This document shows, in pieces, positions 15,336 to 59,827 of a stretch of DNA of 64,000 bases. The stretch covers positions 9,672,001 through 9,736,000 of the forward strand of contig OZ024755.1 of assembly GCA_964016885.1 (NCBI GenBank), in the 5' to 3' direction. The notes under the pieces were generated by a model, which ran no database searches, was not told the origin of the DNA, and was given only the letters and a program-made list of their open reading frames with translations. How positions within the stretch are numbered: position 1 is the stretch's first letter; every line of letters begins with the position of its first letter. Made by a program: the position numbers and the translations under genes. Origin of the DNA: Eledone cirrhosa. Lineage: Eukaryota.

Positions 15336-15672
15336 GTAAGTTATATATATATTGATAAATCTTAATTTTATTTCAAATCTCTTTGAGTAAAATATTTTAT
15401 AATCATCATAATCATCATCATTTAATGTCTATTTCCCATGCTAGCATGGGTTGAACAGGTTGTTATGGTCTAAGGCTACACAACAGAATGGTGGGGAAGG
15501 GGGCATGGCTTGCTCATACATTCCATATTTGGCATGGTTTCTACAGTTTCATGCCCTTCTTAATGTCATCATTATCATCATTTAATGTTGGTTTTTCCCT
15601 GTTAGCATACATGTTTTTAGCAAAATAAATCTATAATCTATAAAGAATATAGGAATTTATTTTACATTTCAG

Positions 15673-15861
15673 GTGGTCAGACTTTTAGATGTGTTTCCTC
15701 ACGGTGCTGGATTTGTATTGGTTTTTGAGTATATGTTATCAGATCTGTGGGAGGTGATCCATGATTCCGAGCACCCCCTCACAGAGTCTCAGTTGAAATC
15801 ATATCTACTTATGCTGCTCAAAGGTGTGGCATTTTGTCACAAGAACAATATTATGCATCGC
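15673..15861 (+). CDS. CDK20: CDK20 exon 4
   Basis: VVRLLDVFPHGAGFVLVFEYMLSDL...LLKGVAFCHKNNIMHR. Confidence 0.96.
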
Positions 15862-16137
15862 GTAAGTTTATTTCTTTCAACCGAACATTGTCTTACTTTT
15901 CTCAAATGTCTGTATGGGTCCTTAACTACTGAGGGAGTTGTAGGGGCATACGGCATATCTTGGGCATTTTTTAAACCTGGCAGAGCACATCTCCTCTCCA
16001 GGTCTGAATACAGCAGATTTCTTCTAGAGAAGGATAGAGAGTGAGAGAATGGAAGTGAGAAAGAGACACAAAAGAACTGACCCCAGTACTAGACTGGTAC
16101 TTTTTCATTATAGATAATAAACATTTGTTTCTTGCAG

Positions 16138-16259
16138 GATTTAAAACCTGCTAATTTGTTGATCAGTTCCACTGGACATTTGAAGATTGCTGATTTTGGA
16201 CTGGCCAGAGTTTTCCAGAACAATAGTAACTGTGAATATAGCCACCAGGTGGCTACAAG
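16138..16259 (+). CDS. CDK20: CDK20 exon 5
   Basis: [41 protein letters not shown]. Confidence 0.96.
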
Positions 16260-16789
16260 GTAATGTTGACATTTTATGGGAAAAAGCTAAATTTACTGTT
16301 CTACGACATCTACTTTGGTCACCCCACTACCTTTTATATATCTCCATGGTACTACAGGAAGAAAATATAATACAGTAACAACAAAGGTTTAAATCTCTAT
16401 ATATAAAACACAATGTCTGTTGTCCTGGCTGTCAAAAAATATCTTGGGCCAAGAGCAATGTTATTAAGGTCATATCCACTGAAAGTTTTAGTTATTGATT
16501 TTACAATTTTGAGACAAAAGAAATGCTCCTGTGGCATTGTTCCTGATGAGAATATTAAGATAATGGATCCAGAAAATTTCTAAAAACTAAACGGAAAGGA
16601 GTTGATTGTCAGATCAGACCAAGAAAACTGTTTCCCTTAACCTTTCTCTGTTTTCCAGGAAAAAAAAGACCTTGTGAAAGTTTCAGAGGTCAGATTAGTT
16701 GATAGTACACAAAAAAAAAATGAGGAAAAATAATTATCTCCTGCTGATATCATGAGGAGTAATCTATAAATTTACCATTGTTTTTATAG

Positions 16790-16852
16790 GTGGTACAGAG
16801 CTCCAGAACTTTTGTATGGAGCAAGGAAATATGATGAAGGTGTTGACTTATG
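16790..16852 (+). CDS. CDK20: CDK20 exon 6
   Basis: WYRAPELLYGARKYDEGVDLW. Confidence 0.96.
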
Positions 16853-17523
16853 GTAAATATATTTGCTTTATCAGAATATGACATTATACTTAACTAAACG
16901 TTGTTGTTGTGGTTGGACTTCTGTTGATTTCAACAGTGAATGTTTCTATGGAACAGCCTGCTCATGAAATTAATGTACCAGTGGTTGAGTATTCCACAGC
17001 CACATACACTCTTAATGTAGTCCTCAGGGAGAGTCAGTGTGACAAGGCTGGCCCTTTAAATCACAGATATAACTCATTTTGCTGGCTGAGGGGACTGGAT
17101 CAATGTGAAATAAAATGTCTTGACACAATATATCGCCAGGAATCGAACTCACAACCTTACAACTGTGTCAAACACCCTAACTTTTAAGCCACACACTTTC
17201 AGAACTAAACTTTATTAGTACATTCTTTTATGAATGAAATAAGTAATACTGTGTCAACATGTCTCTTGACCAAACTGTAAAGAAAACAACAATATATGTG
17301 TATGTGTGTATGTATGTATTTAAGTATGTGTGTGTGTATATGCCTGCATGTGTGTGAATCAATGTGTTTATGTATATATATATATATATATGTGTGTGAG
17401 TGTGTGTATACTATAGTCTCCTTATGTCTTCCATTGTTTAAATGTTTTGATAATTTCAATACCCTATTTTCAGTTATCTTGTGATACTGTTTGATAATAA
17501 ACCCCTTTTTATTTCATTTTCAG

Positions 17524-17575
17524 GGCTGTGGGCTGTATTTTTGGTGAGCTGCTGAACAATTCCCCTCTTTTTCCA
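17524..17575 (+). CDS. CDK20: CDK20 exon 7
   Basis: AVGCIFGELLNNSPLFP. Confidence 0.95.
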
Positions 17576-17596
17576 GTATGGTTAATTATATAATTG

Positions 17597-17719
17597 TATT
17601 CATCATCAACATCATTACCAGCAGCATCATTATCACCCCATCATCACCATTATCATCGCCATCAACACCACCGACATCATTACCACCAACAGCCTAATCA
17701 CCATGTCCCCCATCAACAG

Positions 17720-17754
<35 letters not shown>

Positions 17755-17790
17755 CCAACACCATCGCCAACACTAGCAACAGCACCATCT
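17597..17790. repeat. Compound CAT/CAC/CAA trinucleotide microsatellite (intronic)
   Basis: Direct reading; it produces the spurious poly-His ORF. Confidence 0.9.
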
Positions 17791-17990
17791 TAATGACCAA
17801 TATACACTGTTGATATATTCTGTTTAGCTACAATTATTTTCATTGATTGTTCTTGTTAATTAATTATATTAATTCGTAAATTAATTAAATTAATTAAGCG
17901 AAAATCTAATCTTAGAATCTTTTCCCTCAGCTAAATAATGAGAACATATCTAAAACTAATAAAATATTGTTTTTATGAAACATTGTGAAA

Positions 17991-18250
17991 TATAAGACAG
18001 TACAGTGCAAGTTAGAAATACATGAGTGAAAACTGGAGTAAAGTAAGTAAAACAAAACAACAGTTTACACTTTTACCTTATATTTCAGATGTTTCGGGGT
18101 TAAGACCCTATTTTTTCACAAGAAAGGAAATGGAATTTGATGTTGATTATTTTCTTTTGAAAAAGGTATCTTAACTCATGAAAGGTAAAAATGTAAACTG
18201 TTGTATTGTTTTGTTTTTCTTCACTCTTGTATTGTACTGTCTTTCTTATA
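17991..18250. mobile_element. Foldback/MITE-like element; relative at 41938-42105
   Basis: agacagtacagtgcaag ... cttgtattgtactgtct ends; internal acagtttacacttttacct / aggtaaaaatgtaaactgt. Confidence 0.65.
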
Positions 18251-18321
18251 ACAGCCCCAACTACATAATTCAATGTTTTTATATTTATATAAATTTACCC
18301 TTTTTTCTCTCTTCTATTTAG

Positions 18322-18393
18322 GGTGATAATGATATTGAGCAGCTGTGTTGTGTATTGAGAGTTTTGGGAACACCAACTGAGAAAACATGGCCA
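18322..18393 (+). CDS. CDK20: CDK20 exon 8
   Basis: GDNDIEQLCCVLRVLGTPTEKTWP. Confidence 0.95.
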
Positions 18394-18780
18394 GTAATCA
18401 TTATTAAATTTTTGTTCTACAATATTTTGTTCTGTACCTCTCAGTACAAGTCTCAGTAGAATTTAACTTGCATCATTAACCCTTCTGATACCAAACCACC
18501 TGAAACAGCCCAGAGTTCTATGATCCAAAATTGTCTATTTTGTCTGTTTTGATACCAACCAAGCCAAAACCAGCTCTGGTTCTATGTAGCAAAACCACTT
18601 ATTTTAAAAGATTCATATTTATATTAAAATCTTCAAACATAATTTTATTTAAGAAATGTGATCACAAAAGGTTTAAAGTTTCTATATTTATCTTTAAATC
18701 TTTCATCAGAAATTAAATTTTCTCTGATTAATTATTTATTATATTTTTATAATTGTTTTTTCTTTCTTTAAAAATTGAAG

Positions 18781-18936
18781 GGGATGTCAGAATTACCTGA
18801 TTTCAAGAAGATTACATTCCCAGAAAATCCTGCAATTCCGATCAAAGAAATAGTTCCAGATGCCTCAGCTTGTGCCTCGGACTTACTTGAAAAGTTCCTT
18901 ATGTATCCCTCCAAAGAAAGGATAGCAGCCAAAAAG
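18781..18936 (+). CDS. CDK20: CDK20 exon 9
   Basis: GMSELPDFKKITFPENPAIPIKEIVPDASACASDLLEKFLMYPSKERIAAKK. Confidence 0.95.
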
Positions 18937-19452
18937 GTACATTCATAACACTCTGTTATGGTTTTTTTTAACTGTATATTAATACAGCAGTCCCCAACCT
19001 TTTTATAGCATGGACTAATGGCATGCAAGACAATTTTTCCTTGGACTGAGGAGGGGGTGATTTCGATGTCGGTCACATGCGTAACAAAACACAATAAACA
19101 CTAAAGTAGTACTTCTTCACCCACTTGTTCCTGAGAGGGTTGAGTGGGACAGAGTCCTCAAACACTCCTTCCAACGGGTCCTGTCAGAAGCAACCGTCTC
19201 CAACTAATCTGGCTAGATCCTCAAGCAAAACCAGATAAGCCCATGGATGTTATTCAACCATCTTGCTCAGGGTCTACCCATGGGTCTCCTGCCAGTTGGT
19301 TTTGCCCGTAAAATATGTCCAGCAATTTAAACTCAGAACATAAAGAGCTGTAACTAAATGCTGCAATGCCTTTTATCTGATGCTCTAATGATTTTGCAAA
19401 TCCATCGCCCTCTGTGAAATTCTGTATATACCTTTGATTTCTTCTTTTGCAG

Positions 19453-19632
19453 GCTTTACTTCATCCTTACTTTTTCAGTGTTCCCCTTCCTTGTCATCAT
19501 TCAGATCTACCAGTGCCTTACAGGGGTTGGCAGGTGAGACGAAGACAACAAACACATGACTACAATCCAGATATTCCTTTGGAAAAATCTCTTATCTCTC
19601 TCGACGCATTATCTGTTTTTATGGATCAATAA
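19453..19632 (+). CDS. CDK20: CDK20 exon 10 (last coding exon)
   Basis: ALLHPYFFSVPLPCHHSDLPVP...MDQ*; joined CDS 1026 nt. Confidence 0.95.
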   Translation, partial: ALLHPYFFSVPLPCHHSDLPVPYRGWQVRRRQQTHDYNPDIPLEKSLISLDALSVFMDQ

Positions 19633-26480: not shown

Positions 26481-26549
26481 TTATGCTTCCTCTTCACATG
26501 GTTGACAAGTGTCGAGGGCTTCGTTTCGGGACCTTCCACGATGTAGGAT
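26481..26549 (-). CDS. PFKFB: PFKFB distal terminal coding exon
   Basis: tttttgcag|ILHRGRSRNEALDTCQPCEEEA*, resembling the PFKFB1 tail (R.PEEALDT); phase 0 matches the 34395 donor. Confidence 0.8.
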   Translation of the reverse strand: MLHRGRSRNEALDTCQPCEEEA

Positions 26550-30158: not shown

Positions 30159-30230
30159 TTATTCCATCAATATGTTGTTAGATTGATCATACAGTGTAGA
30201 TGTGTTGTTGACACTTTTAGAAATTACTGT
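30159..30230 (-). CDS. PFKFB: Candidate PFKFB proximal alternative terminal exon
   Basis: ctttttatttcag|TVISKSVNNTSTLYDQSNNILME*, phase 0, AATAAA ~30 nt after the stop; no homology support. Confidence 0.45.
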   Translation of the reverse strand, partial: TVISKSVNNTSTLYDQSNNILME

Positions 30231-34298: not shown

Positions 34299-34541
<243 letters not shown>

Positions 34542-48088: not shown

Positions 48089-48849
48089 GGTGTTTAGCAT
48101 TGCAGATGTATCTCATTTTTTTAAAAACAGATAAAAACTATATATTTTTTATCTACTTTAAGCAAAACTTAATTGCTTTTGCGCAAAATACCAACAGAAC
48201 ATGCTATTGGTAAATAGGCATTTGGAATTTAAAATTTACATCTGCTTAAAAAAAATATATATATATATATAAAGCACACAGTAAAATTAAATATTCACAC
48301 ACAAAGTTTTTCAAACTAATTTCTCTAATTACTCAAAACAAGAAAAACAACTAATTATTTTTTGTGCTAAATTCAAACTCAAAAGAATGTTTTTAGATTT
48401 TAGTTACAGTTTGTACATTTAAATTTTAATATAGTTTATATTTCTAGGTTTTAGTATAGATTTTATATCAATTTGGATTTTTAAAAAATCAGTTTTGTTT
48501 TATGAAGGATTATTCACTAAAGAAACCCAGGTCACCTTATTCAAAAATTATAAGTGTATGAATAAAGTGACCTGATTACATTACATATTTTGTAAGATAA
48601 TTAGTGTGTCTCTGGTAATTTAGTTTAATATTAGTTTGATGGTGTTGAGGATATATATATTTTAAAAGAATTAGCACCACACCCAGAGAGATATTTCAAT
48701 TGGTCAGGTATAAAAAACTTAACCTGTTTTTTAGTGTATGTTGTTTCTATTGATCAGTTCTTGATTTAAAATTAAGCTAAAAAATTATTAATTTAGGAGT
48801 TGTACTTGTCTGACAAGTGACATCATCTGAGACAAGGTGTTGAAACTAA

Positions 48850-49502
48850 AGCAATTACATTGTGAAAGAATCATTTTAGCCATTCAAAGACATACAAAAA
48901 CTTCTCTTTGCATTCATCATTAATTTTTCGGTGTTAATATTTTCATTGCACCGTTTGTGACCTGGTCTACTGACAGTATTATAGTGGCCAGATTACAGTG
49001 TGTCAGTGGAACTGTGTCAGGGGCCAGGTCACAGTGTGACAGTGGAGTTGTGTCAGTGACCAGGTCACAAAGAGTGACAGTGGAGCTGTGTCAGTGACCA
49101 GGTCAGAAAGAGTGACAGTGGAGCTGTGTCAGTGACCAGGTCACAAAGAGTGACAGTGGAGCTGTGTCAGTGACCAGGTCACAAAGAGTGACAGTGGATC
49201 TGTGTCAGTGACCAGGTCACAAAGAGTGACAGTGGATCTGTGAAAGTGACCAGGTTACAAACAGTGTGACAATGGAACTGTGTCAGTGGCCAGGTCAGTG
49301 TGACAGTGGCGCTGTGTCAATAACCAGATTACAGTGTCAGTGACCAGGTCACAAAATTGTGACAATGGAGCTGTGCCATTGACCAGGTCACAAAGAGTGC
49401 AACAAAAATGTTAATACCAAGAAACAAATGACAAATGTAAAGTGAAGTTAACAGTTTCTGTGTTGTTGAATTTCTAAAACGACTCCTCCACGACATAATT
49501 GC
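48850..49502. repeat. Foldback element with internal 38-bp minisatellite (~48985-49400)
   Basis: Imperfect ~120-bp inverted arms around gtgacagtggagctgtgtcagtgaccaggtcacaaaga repeats. Confidence 0.8.
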
Positions 49503-49705
49503 CATTTACTCCATCAATTCAATTGATATATATATATAGCAACGGGAAGAAGAAGAATAAAAAGAAAAAGAAGAAAATACTAGCTAATAATAAATGTTGT
49601 TAGAGAAACCAGAGTGCAATATCAGCAGCAGCAGTGTAGCAACACAGTGTTACTACAGGAATATCACACACACACACACATACAACTAACTAGATAAGTT
49701 GGCAA

Positions 49706-49821
49706 TCATGGCTTGATACTCCACCTGAGCAAGGGTATCTCTTCCAGCACACAAGTGCCAAATGGTGTCATAGTCATTTTCACTAAAGTCTCACACGGGA
49801 CAGGCACATATGGGATCTCCT
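49706..49821 (-). CDS. PFKFB: PFKFB paralogous alternative exon (duplicate of the 34395-34522 exon, with its own stop)
   Basis: Phase-1 acceptor gives EEIPYVPVPCETLVKMTMTPFGTCVLEEIPLLRWSIKP*, aligning with [29 protein letters not shown]. Confidence 0.75.
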
Positions 49822-52800
49822 CTAGATCGTGGTTTTGGTGATACAAAAAGGAAAAAAGGCAACACCAGTTAATGGTATGTATATGTAAAAGAAATGTTTT
49901 ATCTCCATGACATTAAAAGAAGCATAAAGAATGACTCTAGTAGTACTCAGTGTGTTGACTTTGAAGAATTCTATTGAAGAAGAAAATAAAAAGTAAGATA
50001 TATATAGATATAGATATATATGTGTAGTGATTTTATACAGTCCAATGTTTTCAAATTCATACTACACATGTTTCAAAGTAAGACAGATATATCCAACTTA
50101 TCATTAGGCAGTTTTTGCCTGATGATAAGTTGGGCACATTTGTTTAACTTTGAAACATGTGTAGTGAGAACTTGTAAACCTTGAACTATATTAAAACAAC
50201 TCTTCTCACAAAATTGAGTTCTCTCCCCACCTTTGGATATTCTAATTGCTATATCTATATATATATATATATAAAACAAAGATGAAAATGCATGCATATA
50301 TGTATTCTATGTTTTACTTATATTTATCAGTGTCTTCTCATAAAAAACTAATTCAACTTTCAAATAGCCAGTGTCTGTAATCTACTAGTTTAACTGTTCC
50401 CAGATAATCTTGTTATTTGTGTGAATCTGTACTATTTGTTCTGTAATGAACAGCATATACTGAGAATAAACAGTATATCATTTGCTGTAATATACAATAC
50501 AAGTATCAAAAGTAATCCATCATTATGAGAATATAGTTGTGTTTGCCATCATTATCATCATCATCATCATCATCCTCTTTATGTCTGCTTTCCATGTTGA
50601 CATGGGCTGATGTCTCAAGGTCCCAGACATGACAAGACAAGAAGGGGTCTGATAACCACTATGGAACACATTTCATTTCAGACAAGCCTTCAGTTTCAAT
50701 GGCTTTTACAATATTTTATGACAAAAATATTTTGTCATTAGAGCTAGTGATACAGTAAAACTCTGGTAAGTAAAAAACAGTACTATGACTGTATTACATT
50801 AAAAAGTCTTTAATTTATTGAAAATTTTCACAACAATCTGTCTCTGTCCACTAGTAAAGATACTATAAACATTTAAGTTAAGAATCCCTCGTTCAATATT
50901 TTCTGTGAAATCATTACAGAATGTTATGAGTCAATTAACAACCATGCATACACAGCAGATCTTTTTAGCATAATTGACTGCATCACATTAAATATTGAAG
51001 TATTTACTTTAATACTGCAAATTTTCACAACAATCAGTCAGCTAGTAAAAATATTATAAACATTTGAATTAACAAACCTGTTTTTAGATATTTTTTACTA
51101 AATAATTTACAGGATGTTAAAAGTTAAAATAATTTGTTGAAATTTGTTGAATTTGTCCCATATTGCAGATACCTAAATAGTCCAAATCTATTTCTACAGC
51201 AGACTGATTTCATGTTGACTTAAATGACATTTCTTGAGTGTATGTTAGTGACAGAGAGAGGTGATGAGAGATGATAAGAGATGATAATGTTAGGTAAGAT
51301 CTGCAGATAATATTCCATTGACACCAAGAAATCCAATGTGTTTTCTGGTCCTAAAAAGAATATGAGAACTGAAAAAAAAATTATATAATTAATCTAATTA
51401 TACTCAATTTTCTTTGAATGAAAGAGGAAGCTTTATTTTTTTTATCTACCTTTCATTTATATAAATTTGAATTTTTATCAAGTTAATTTTGAAATAAAAT
51501 TACATTGTTGTTAGTTGTGTATTAAAAAAAGAAATTTCATATTAAAAAAACAAAAAAGAATCAAGCAATTTCATTAAAAGCCAAGAGGTATCATCCTCTG
51601 GAAATAAAAACACTTGATTAAACTCCATCAACAAACAACATACAAGTTTTGTCTATGAAAATTTAAAAGGTAAATAATACATAAAAAAAAGGAAAGGAGT
51701 CAATCATCAGATCAGACGAAGAAAACAATCTTTAATAAGAAAAAAAATTTAAGAGAAAAATGGAGAGAGTGTACAAGCATGTGTTTTATATAAAAACTTT
51801 AATGGGCATGATGAATGTTATCTAAAATATGCAGCAGATTATTAGAAACTTTAACATAGCAATAAAAGCTGGAACTATATTGATGATAGCTTCAAAGAAA
51901 AATAATTGAGAATGAAAGGGAAAAAGAAAAAGTAAGGAGTTGATTGGCATATCAGACCAAAGTCCCCATTGATCTTTCTATTGCTGATATTATCTGTCTA
52001 TCATCAAATTGGATCGATGAAACTGGGTTTCATTAGTTTTACCATTGCTGATATTATTTGTTCATCACCAGATCAGACCAAGGAAACTATGTTTCCACTG
52101 GTCTTTCTATTGCTGATATTATTTGCCAGTCATCAGATTGGATCAAGGAAACTATGTTTCCATTGGTCTTTTCATTGCTGATACTATCTGCTGGTGACAA
52201 CTCCTGGCAGAACAAGACAAGATTTGAACTCAGAAAGCTGAGAGCTGAATCAGATACCACAAAGCATCCTGTCTGACTGTGATCTTTTTGACACCAACCT
52301 GCCTAAAAACACCCCCAAGTTTTATGATACAAAACTTCTTGTTTTAAAGTGTTTATATTTGAATTAAAACCTCCCGTCATTCAATTTATGTAAGAACCAT
52401 TTTATGAAGATCCAAGCACCATCTTAATGTAAAATTATTTTATTTAAATACCATGAGTTTCCTTATTATTTTCAAGATTTATTGAAATAGTGTATTTAAT
52501 TAGAAATATGACAAGACATTTTATTTCCTGCTGCCTCAGTTTACTCAGCTGTAAAAATGAGTTGCAATGTCACTGGTGCCAAGCTGTATCAGTCTTTGCT
52601 TTCTCTTGGACAACAACGGTGGTGTGGAGAAGGGAGACTGGTATACATGGGTGACTACTGGTCTTCTACAAACAACTTTGCCCAGACTTGCACCTTGGAA
52701 GGGAACTTTCTAGGTGCAAATCCCATAGTCATTTGAGACCGAAGGGGGTCTTTACTCTTTACCCTTTTATGGTATTAAAAGGGTTAACAATCCTGCCAAT

Positions 52801-56252: not shown

Positions 56253-58006
56253 TACATACATATATGTATGCATATTCATTTCGGGAATTTTACCCGCCCT
56301 AGATAGATAGATATATGCATATGTATATATATACACATATATGTATACATATACATGTGTGCATAGATACAAATATCGAGGTTACAATATTCAAATTTAT
56401 TTCAGCTAATTTGTTTTAGCATTAGTATTAAACCAAAAGGTTCATATGAATCTTAAACATTTTAAGGCCATTTTCCCTGCTAAAACTGGAGTTAGCTTTG
56501 TGGGCCCATGACAAACTTAATCATACACATCATGGGGTCCTTTTTGAAGCAATGTTTTACAGCCAGATGCTCTTCCTGACACTAACCAAATTAGTTGGGA
56601 TACTGTGTAACTATTCTAAACCAGATACATAGTATGATTGAATCTGATCCATTGCAACATTTTGTATTCTAATAGATTATATTTATTAGGATGAACAATA
56701 ACACACAACTGTTTTAAGGCAATTTTCTCTGCTAAAGTAGGGGTTAACTTTTCAGGGTCCATGATAAGCTTCAAATTCATTATAGGGTCCCTTTTGAAGC
56801 AATGTTTTACATCTAGATGCTCTTCATGATACCAACCCTTTTAGTCACCTCTGGGTGCATCAGGGATATGGTGTATCTATTTAAAACTAGATACACACAT
56901 TCTTATTAAAGAATATATCACATATATATAGAAACAAATAATTTTCAAATATTAATTGTAATCTCACACATTTACCAAAGGTTTATAAATATATCCTTTT
57001 GCATTGTCCCCCCCCCCCCCCTTCCTAACACAGCTCTCCCCCATAACATTTTTTCAGGAAAATTCAATAAATTTAGTCATAAAAACTTTAGTTGTTTGTT
57101 TGTAGTTGACGAAACTATAGTAACCCAATATGCATTATAACTAAATAGAATTTTATGTACCATTATAACAATGAAATGAATGGAATATACAAATAGACTT
57201 GCATTTAATATTTGGCGCAGCTTGCATTGGCGTTTAAATGAGTGACTTGAAGAGAGAGTGTAGGGCAAATGTTTGTTTAAAGCAAGCTTGTTTTGAAACC
57301 AGGCAGCTTTGATGCCTGCCACTTACCAGCTATTTAGGTAACTGCCTGATAGAAAACATACTATTAAAAGGGAAAAACATTTACAATAAAACAATATCTC
57401 AAAGAAAGCATGGAATGAATCTGAAGAATTTATAACAAATAATTCTACACACACAAAGGAAACCATTCTGCTCATCACTATTTGAATATAATACTCTACC
57501 TTGCTTTAGTTCATAAGTCAAAGGTCAAATTGAACATCACTCTGCCATACATAATATAAAACAGGTCATTGAAGGGTTTCAGCAGTTTCAGTGTTGTGAT
57601 AAAAGAGCAGCTACAGCTAATATAATAAGGCTATTTTCACTTATTAAATCAGGGTATAGCTTTGTGGTCCCCATGAAAGGATTCATATTCATCTTGGGGT
57701 CCTTTTTGAATCAATGTTTTATGACCAGGTACCCTTTCTAGCACCAAACCTCTCAAACCCCACTGACAACATGCAGGAATGCAATGTACCTGTCCCAAAC
57801 TAGACATACACAACTGTAGTGATAAGAGAAAATTGACAGGGCCCCAGTTTAATCATATTGATGTTATAGCTTACACCTACGGCACTTTAGCTGAGAGTGA
57901 CTCAAGTCTTTCTAGATCGTCCTCTATTGCGTCTTCCTTCCACTGGGGTTTCCTGGTTCACCTACCAGTCATTGTCCATGCACATCACATGTTCATACCA
58001 ATGCAC

Positions 58007-59713: not shown

Positions 59714-59827
<114 letters not shown>

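Follow-up and report, generated by a model that had tools for sequence, protein, structure and literature searches.

The level of Fru-2,6-P2, the main allosteric switch of glycolysis, is adjusted in vertebrates through four genes and by phosphorylation of the tail of PFKFB, the enzyme controlling that level. There, the PFKFB segment that follows the hairpin contributes to retaining Fru-6-P in the phosphatase site, while entry of substrate and release of product are gated by the arm; when about 30 residues are removed from the C-terminus of the rat liver bisphosphatase domain, its Vmax rises. Splicing near the 3′ end of vertebrate PFKFB1-4 alters how the enzyme is regulated, with a presumed shift in the kinase:phosphatase ratio; in the matched passages of these sources, the rat PFKFB4 variants show inserts or deletions within FBPase-2, with no mention there of duplication or conservation (PMC4178209, PMC13446353, PMC6131595).

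Two further kinds of described system are relevant here. Substitutions that derive from tandem exon duplication are typically ancient and conserved, and their C-terminal cases use alternative poly(A), according to the matched passages of PMC8373072. Non-triplet alternative splicing, treated for C. elegans and human in the matched passages of PMC13247117, comprises NMD-sensitive, alternative C-terminus, and dual-coding classes. The main text of the former paper has no mention of PFKFB, and that of the latter has none of pfkb/PFKFB.

The window, by which we mean the whole 64,000-nucleotide stretch of Eledone cirrhosa DNA analyzed here, contains the 3′ part of the minus-strand PFKFB gene of this octopod (Table 1); the rest of the gene, with its upstream exons, lies beyond the window end in adjacent stretches of the assembly. 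Exons were mapped by tblastn, most of the PFKFB exons in the window being 90-100% identical to O. bimaculoides proteins, and the phosphatase catalytic RHG, KR, and HQ motifs are intact in the upstream exons of the window. The canonical exon, for which the start was corrected to 34522, matches solved PFKFB structures (E 1e-15). As in the window, two PFKFB tail types are seen in bivalves and gastropods. Two ORFs containing KLTP, at 56750 and 56498, were rejected as exons, being repeat copies. Lying tail to tail with PFKFB are CDK-type kinase exons (15637-19629, plus strand; Pfam Pkinase match), which we take to be CDK20-like, and JmjC demethylase exons with weak Pfam JmjC matches, presumably KDM7/PHF8-like, occupy 222-2954 on the minus strand.

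Table 1. Features of the PFKFB gene in the window (window coordinates).
Feature	Position	Strand	Remarks
Three more bisphosphatase-domain exons	63867-63718, 63544-63440, 62920-62879	-	
Upstream PFKFB exon, HQAV motif	59740..59827	-	88 nt; phase-1 donor 59740 serves both acceptors
Duplicated exon as 97-nt (3n+1) cassette	49725..49821	-	Acceptor AG 49823-49822, displaced pyrimidine tract; weak donor CAG/GTGGAG
Read-through extension past weak donor (terminal form)	49706..49724	-	TGA 49708-49706
Candidate 3′ UTR	49400..49705	-	Covered by read-through contigs
Canonical exon: terminal hairpin and NTHR	34395..34522	-	128 nt
Shifted-frame TAG	34453..34455	-	58 nt upstream of next exon junction
Likely alternative last exon, TVISK type	30162..30230	-	Weak tblastn E 0.013; X6 contig loose end of TVISK type
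Last coding exon, ILHRGR type	26481..26549	-	X10 and X4 contig loose ends

The 25-kb intron upstream of the canonical exon had been proposed to hide a second copy of that exon, and we confirm that the duplicated PFKFB exon at 49821 is real, spliced, and old. The segment reads as the original prediction had it, with an AG directly before its start, a phase 1 that matches the 59740 donor, and a 38-codon frame running to the TGA. Its paralogy to the canonical exon is borne out by a local BLOSUM62 score of 53, reached by 0 of 5000 shuffles, and the segment is the top of the 1313 AG-started 32-codon windows in the intron (the runner-up scores 38). Profile-profile comparison relates the two exons over 29 columns (E 7.2e-6), so that they are homologous, with identical phase and position, the duplicate having one additional residue after the hairpin Gly. 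The proposed distinction between E-[LI]-P-Y in the duplicate and NLAY in the canonical exon carries no weight, as DLPY is retained by the canonical exon of both O. bimaculoides and Mya, the latter of which has the duplicate too. The idea that the duplicate compensates for the canonical Pro-to-Ala change was rejected as well.

Splicing was assessed in public contigs of five runs, taken from 12 that were listed, none of them on record as RNA. In X10, X4, and X6, which come from three studies and carry three organism codes, contigs stop at 49822 and continue into the end of the 59740 exon, so the junction proposed originally, 59740 to 49821, is found in contigs (overhang in three of the four runs compared over 49400-50200; 29 letters in X10 and X4, below the 31-letter bridging rule). 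The contigs joined in this way give no cover of the intron just upstream, and X1 is unspliced across the 49821 acceptor. In X10 and X6, there are also contigs that break off at 49725 and run on into the start of the canonical exon, a joint seen from both exons, which makes CAG/GTGGAG a working donor and the duplicated exon a 97-nt cassette. Both junctions are bridged, with over 200 letters to either side, by a 708-nt contig of X6 that holds the upstream exon, the cassette, and the canonical exon. The duplicated and canonical exons each have a single good genome match, which makes it unlikely that the joined contigs come from a retrocopy.

The cassette is not the only form. Contigs of X10, X4, and X6 (three of four runs) read through past the stop, again with the upstream intron absent, and the form that skips the duplicated exon was seen in X3. 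In X10, which shares its study with the DNA source and is thus not independent of the assembly, contig depths are 68.6 for skipping, 49.6 for the exon, 28.3 for the cassette exit, and 19.8 for read-through; these are flat k-mer figures that give presence and rough order, by which the cassette form looks at least as common as the terminal form. Because 97 nt is 3n+1, splicing from the cassette shifts the frame of the canonical exon, which is then read over 23 codons as far as the TAG, and both exits remove the NTHR arm and the tail. The original prediction of a C-terminus lacking NTHR and tail is upheld for the terminal form, by the contigs and by an annotated protein of Gigantopelta, although it had missed the donor at 49725/49724 and with it the cassette exit. 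The cassette-form transcript holds both exon copies, and either-or use of the copies holds at the protein level and for the read-through form.

It is possible that the cassette form is the sole true mRNA and that the read-through contigs represent unspliced precursor held at a slow donor, in which case the terminal protein would not be made. A canonical poly(A) signal is absent within 1 kb after the stop, the first ATTAAA lying at 48629, and the library types are not on record, both of which would fit a precursor. However, read-through at the canonical donor was found in none of the four runs, and the annotated Gigantopelta terminal form shares RWS with the window and has its stop nearby, so we regard this reading as rather improbable.

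The duplicated exon has evolved under constraint at the protein level. None of the five substitutions relative to other octopods changes a residue (22 synonymous and 74 non-synonymous sites; Fisher P 0.0004, or 0.002 allowing for transitions), and since the five changes are common to X1, X4, and X6, they count as one comparison. No difference is listed for these three runs in the read-through extension. In the first 118 nt after the read-through stop, there are five differing sites and two small deletions versus 11 of 49 synonymous sites (P 0.0007, a value biased by the mapping threshold), which suggests that this sequence is under regulatory constraint. The conserved stretch after the stop (49705-49560, minus strand) contains UG repeats, a CUG repeat, and UAG/CUAAC words, which we take to be possible splicing-regulator sites.

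In our wider search of molluscs, 163 proteins were gathered via an upstream-exon search and cluster members, of which 128 are canonical, six carry the duplicate, 11 have other short ends, and 18 are without the region. The carriers are Mya XP_052779616.1, Tegillarca KAJ8302352.1, Littorina KAK7102213.1 (P0088), Gigantopelta XP_041348571.1 (P0155), and two further gastropod proteins, one grouping with Pomacea (identical core) and one with pulmonates; Pfam PF01591 (6PF2K) and PF00300 (His_Phos_1) score above cut-off in the alternative isoforms P0088 and P0155. The NTHR arm, invariant in canonical mollusc exons, is missing in all six. Five of the six are of the cassette type and continue into the shifted-frame canonical exon, although the Tegillarca model departs before the stop, and the Gigantopelta isoform is of the read-through type, with the RWS ending of the window plus two residues. 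The weak donor sequence and both exits thus appear common to octopod and gastropod.

The five scored mollusc copies are identical to the window copy at 11-20 of 31 residues, compared with 6-12 for any duplicate against any canonical exon, and the length of the duplicated segment differs across molluscs only by a whole codon. As the duplicates are closer to each other than to any canonical exon, a single duplication is indicated, likely predating the split of cephalopods, gastropods, and bivalves. The original prediction was right about age and constraint; the duplication is mollusc-wide rather than cephalopod-specific. Three chiton isoforms seen are all canonical, and none of the 16 octopod proteins listed from a cluster of 21 contains the duplicated exon. 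The exon peptide alone gave one chance match among PDB sequences (E 0.92), no Pfam match, and none of three candidates in a search of 5.8 billion proteins; the ESM Atlas yielded only short unnamed clusters, and a six-copy profile returned from 2153 candidates only four of its own inputs and is uninformative on the range beyond molluscs.

The same intron contains, at 51372-51193 (minus strand), a decayed sequence, interrupted by a stop and by gaps, that matches the terminal exon used alternatively in isoform X4 of O. bimaculoides. As the 11 mollusc proteins with other short ends break off abruptly after a 59740-type donor, this intron seems to attract truncating exons. Pomacea proteins P0141 and P0142 differ by an unrelated in-frame insert of 28 residues at the matching junction. 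Both the decayed match and the other short ends, along with the weak splice sites, might be taken to mean that the duplicate is dead or drifting and is included via splicing noise. This reading is very improbable and already largely refuted, given a dN of 0 alongside the five synonymous changes, a peptide conserved from octopus to bivalves, and junctions in three studies.

The shifted frame of the canonical exon has regularities of its own. The first stop in this frame falls at an identical Cys-Arg pair in the window and in all four proteins that reach a stop, and two early stop sites are avoided in these five of five readable lineages. A shared stop site is expected in 8-9% per lineage by simulation and was met in nine of 44 distinct metagenome exon groups (from 79 of 80 loci, L060 being left out; none identified as mollusc), and we treat the shared position as suggestive because isoforms that stop earlier may be lost in annotation pipelines. 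Upstream of the stop, three of three substitutions change residues of the shifted tail, all of them synonymous in the canonical frame. The hydrophobic-X-hydrophobic C-terminus of this tail is not evidence, as it follows automatically from the canonical codons.

These features bear on whether the exon serves unproductive splicing, as a poison exon that leads to NMD, its coding constraint being historical or exerted via the read-through form only. NMD is expected for stops more than 50-55 nt before a downstream exon junction, and the cassette stop, whose position is conserved, exceeds this limit marginally. The 3n+1 length in all five cassette-type proteins, the weak splice sites with conserved flanks, and the rarity of annotated isoforms (six of 163) also fit a poison exon. 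However, the synonymous-only changes and a peptide conserved over three classes indicate amino-acid constraint, earlier stops that would better suit NMD are avoided, and inclusion is well represented, with an X10 depth of 28 versus 69 for skipping (rough figures) and the X6 contig path. SCN8A 18N and SCN1A 20N are duplicated poison exons that are taken as non-productive; as in these, inclusion of the mollusc copy brings a premature stop, but the frame of the mollusc exon stays open and is constrained at the amino-acid level. Unproductive splicing seems an unlikely account, and NMD is similarly unlikely to be the main purpose of the exon, whereas it is probable that the exon makes a functional protein. 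Partial degradation of the cassette exit and translation of the read-through exit would be compatible with each other.

The alternative and canonical isoforms of Littorina were modeled with AlphaFold2 from 27-row alignments. The terminal hairpin is rebuilt in both models (strands 401-408 and 411-418, pLDDT 78/81 and 75/80); as 22 of the 27 rows are canonical, the hairpin of the alternative isoform may be imported from the alignment. The tails of both models have pLDDT < 50. In structure comparison, the alternative model was matched to PFKFB (Foldseek E 1e-49; Z about 33), and residues 232-421 of P0088 align to the whole of 1fbt, the isolated rat bisphosphatase domain (Z 22.7, rmsd 2.7, 185/190). 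The 1fbt chain ends at residue 31 of the canonical exon, and a 191-residue chain with a matching end point has been deposited as the phosphoenzyme intermediate. That the duplicate ends where 1fbt ends makes a stop at this domain boundary compatible with folding, and we infer that the product of either exit would be a folded, armless enzyme. The truncated rat liver domain (PDB 1fbt, 1tip, 1c7z) matches the duplicated exon in its end residue, but it was engineered, retains the canonical hairpin, and lacks the kinase domain, unlike the mollusc isoform.

An armless enzyme could act in either direction. The protein might be made while its diverged hairpin and lost arm cripple Fru-2,6-P2 binding, leaving a kinase-dominant, PFKFB3-like, glycolysis-driving form. 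The duplicate is identical to the otherwise near-invariant exon at only 11 of 31 residues, the arm that it removes is the invariant one, and PLH is replaced, with Glu in place of His in six of seven copies; this conserved change could impair the phosphatase instead of releasing it. We assume that Ser302 of PFKFB3 corresponds to the position of an Arg in the window. Against impairment, the catalytic residues are intact, including this Arg where PFKFB3 has Ser302 (PMC6131595, matched passages), and a domain cut at the matching place forms the phosphoenzyme. A kinase-dominant form appears doubtful to us, slightly more so than a poison exon.

The account that we favor, with somewhat more confidence than doubt, is that a paralogous exon, a conchiferan tandem duplicate under purifying selection, would yield a PFKFB with a full catalytic core, without the NTHR arm or tail, and likely shifted toward the phosphatase. 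When splicing leaves from the weak 49725 donor, the 97-nt exon puts the canonical exon out of frame, as a 23-residue filler ending at 34455; when the donor is read through, a stop follows six codons later. The two predicted proteins would have the new hairpin in common and be distinguished only by a short disordered end, from which the conserved function would be the swap of the hairpin together with loss of the arm. Inclusion would then de-repress the phosphatase, lower Fru-2,6-P2, and act as a brake on glycolysis, a direction predicted from the effect of C-terminal deletion in the rat domain, and the switch would operate by splicing instead of tail phosphorylation. Weighing both directions, we estimate phosphatase de-repression to be about three times as likely as phosphatase loss.

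Duplications at the matching place also occur outside molluscs. In three metagenome loci from compact-intron animals (L091:2643-2768, L074:8975-9160, and L046:2-95), an upstream duplicate of the PFKFB exon forms the terminal exon and ends just after a degenerate NTH; the L074 copy has a small intron of its own. Compared with the mollusc copy, this duplicate resembles the canonical exon far more, and it probably represents a separate duplication. In other loci (L053:965-1246, L066:473-755, L073:318-599, and their relatives), the canonical exon is followed some 159 bp downstream by a nearly identical tandem copy in which DTHR has become DTYR, and the two are a candidate mutually exclusive pair. 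Among the matches listed for the mollusc-type profile in 79 metagenome loci, there were canonical-like duplicates only, and no duplicate lies between the HQAV and canonical exons in L040, L055, L069, L086, L089, L092, or L094. Intronless PFKFB-like ORFs on a long branch (L019-L025), some in genomic-looking contigs, might be retrocopies or come from an intron-poor lineage.

Overall, tandem exon duplication, non-triplet splicing, and PFKFB 3′ variants are already known, and the isoform itself exists, without a name, among the automatic annotations of a few molluscs; the combination of these elements in PFKFB and the depth of their conservation appear undescribed. We found no description of a mollusc PFKFB duplicated-exon isoform in the openly available literature covered, and none in the matched passages of PMC6937325, PMC13446353, PMC6131595, PMC13247117, PMC8373072, PMC8780674, PMC4178209, PMC13280272, and bioRxiv 10.1101/429704. 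As in tandem-duplicate substitutions, a homologous copy swaps part of a domain, and the read-through form would use alternative poly(A); unlike them, the mollusc copy is also spliced before its paralogue, which is silenced by frameshift and not by mutual exclusion. As in non-triplet splicing, a 3n+1 cassette sets the next exon in a second frame, of 69 nt here, above the 60-nt dual-coding threshold, but the mollusc cassette is a paralogue of the exon that it reframes, which distinguishes it from the cases in the matched passages of PMC13247117. Whereas the main variants of vertebrate PFKFB1-4 concern the tail after the catalytic core, as far as the matched passages of the sources cited above go, the mollusc variant swaps the last hairpin of the core and removes the NTHR arm.

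An architecture in which a duplicated exon, with two exits, shifts the frame of its paralogue was missed by the octopod annotations examined, and the mollusc isoform would be a natural counterpart of a truncation otherwise known only from an engineered construct. In its broadest form, to which we give somewhat less than even weight, there would be a mollusc splice switch predating the class split, in which the duplicate replaces the last phosphatase hairpin and silences its own paralogue by frameshift, the armless PFKFB resetting fructose-2,6-bisphosphate, for example, in muscle or hypoxia, with another animal lineage having arrived at a similarly truncated isoform by duplicating that exon separately. 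Only one canonical exon was found in the octopod genome. If true, a splice switch conserved in three classes of mollusc would set the kinase:phosphatase ratio by another route than that of vertebrates.
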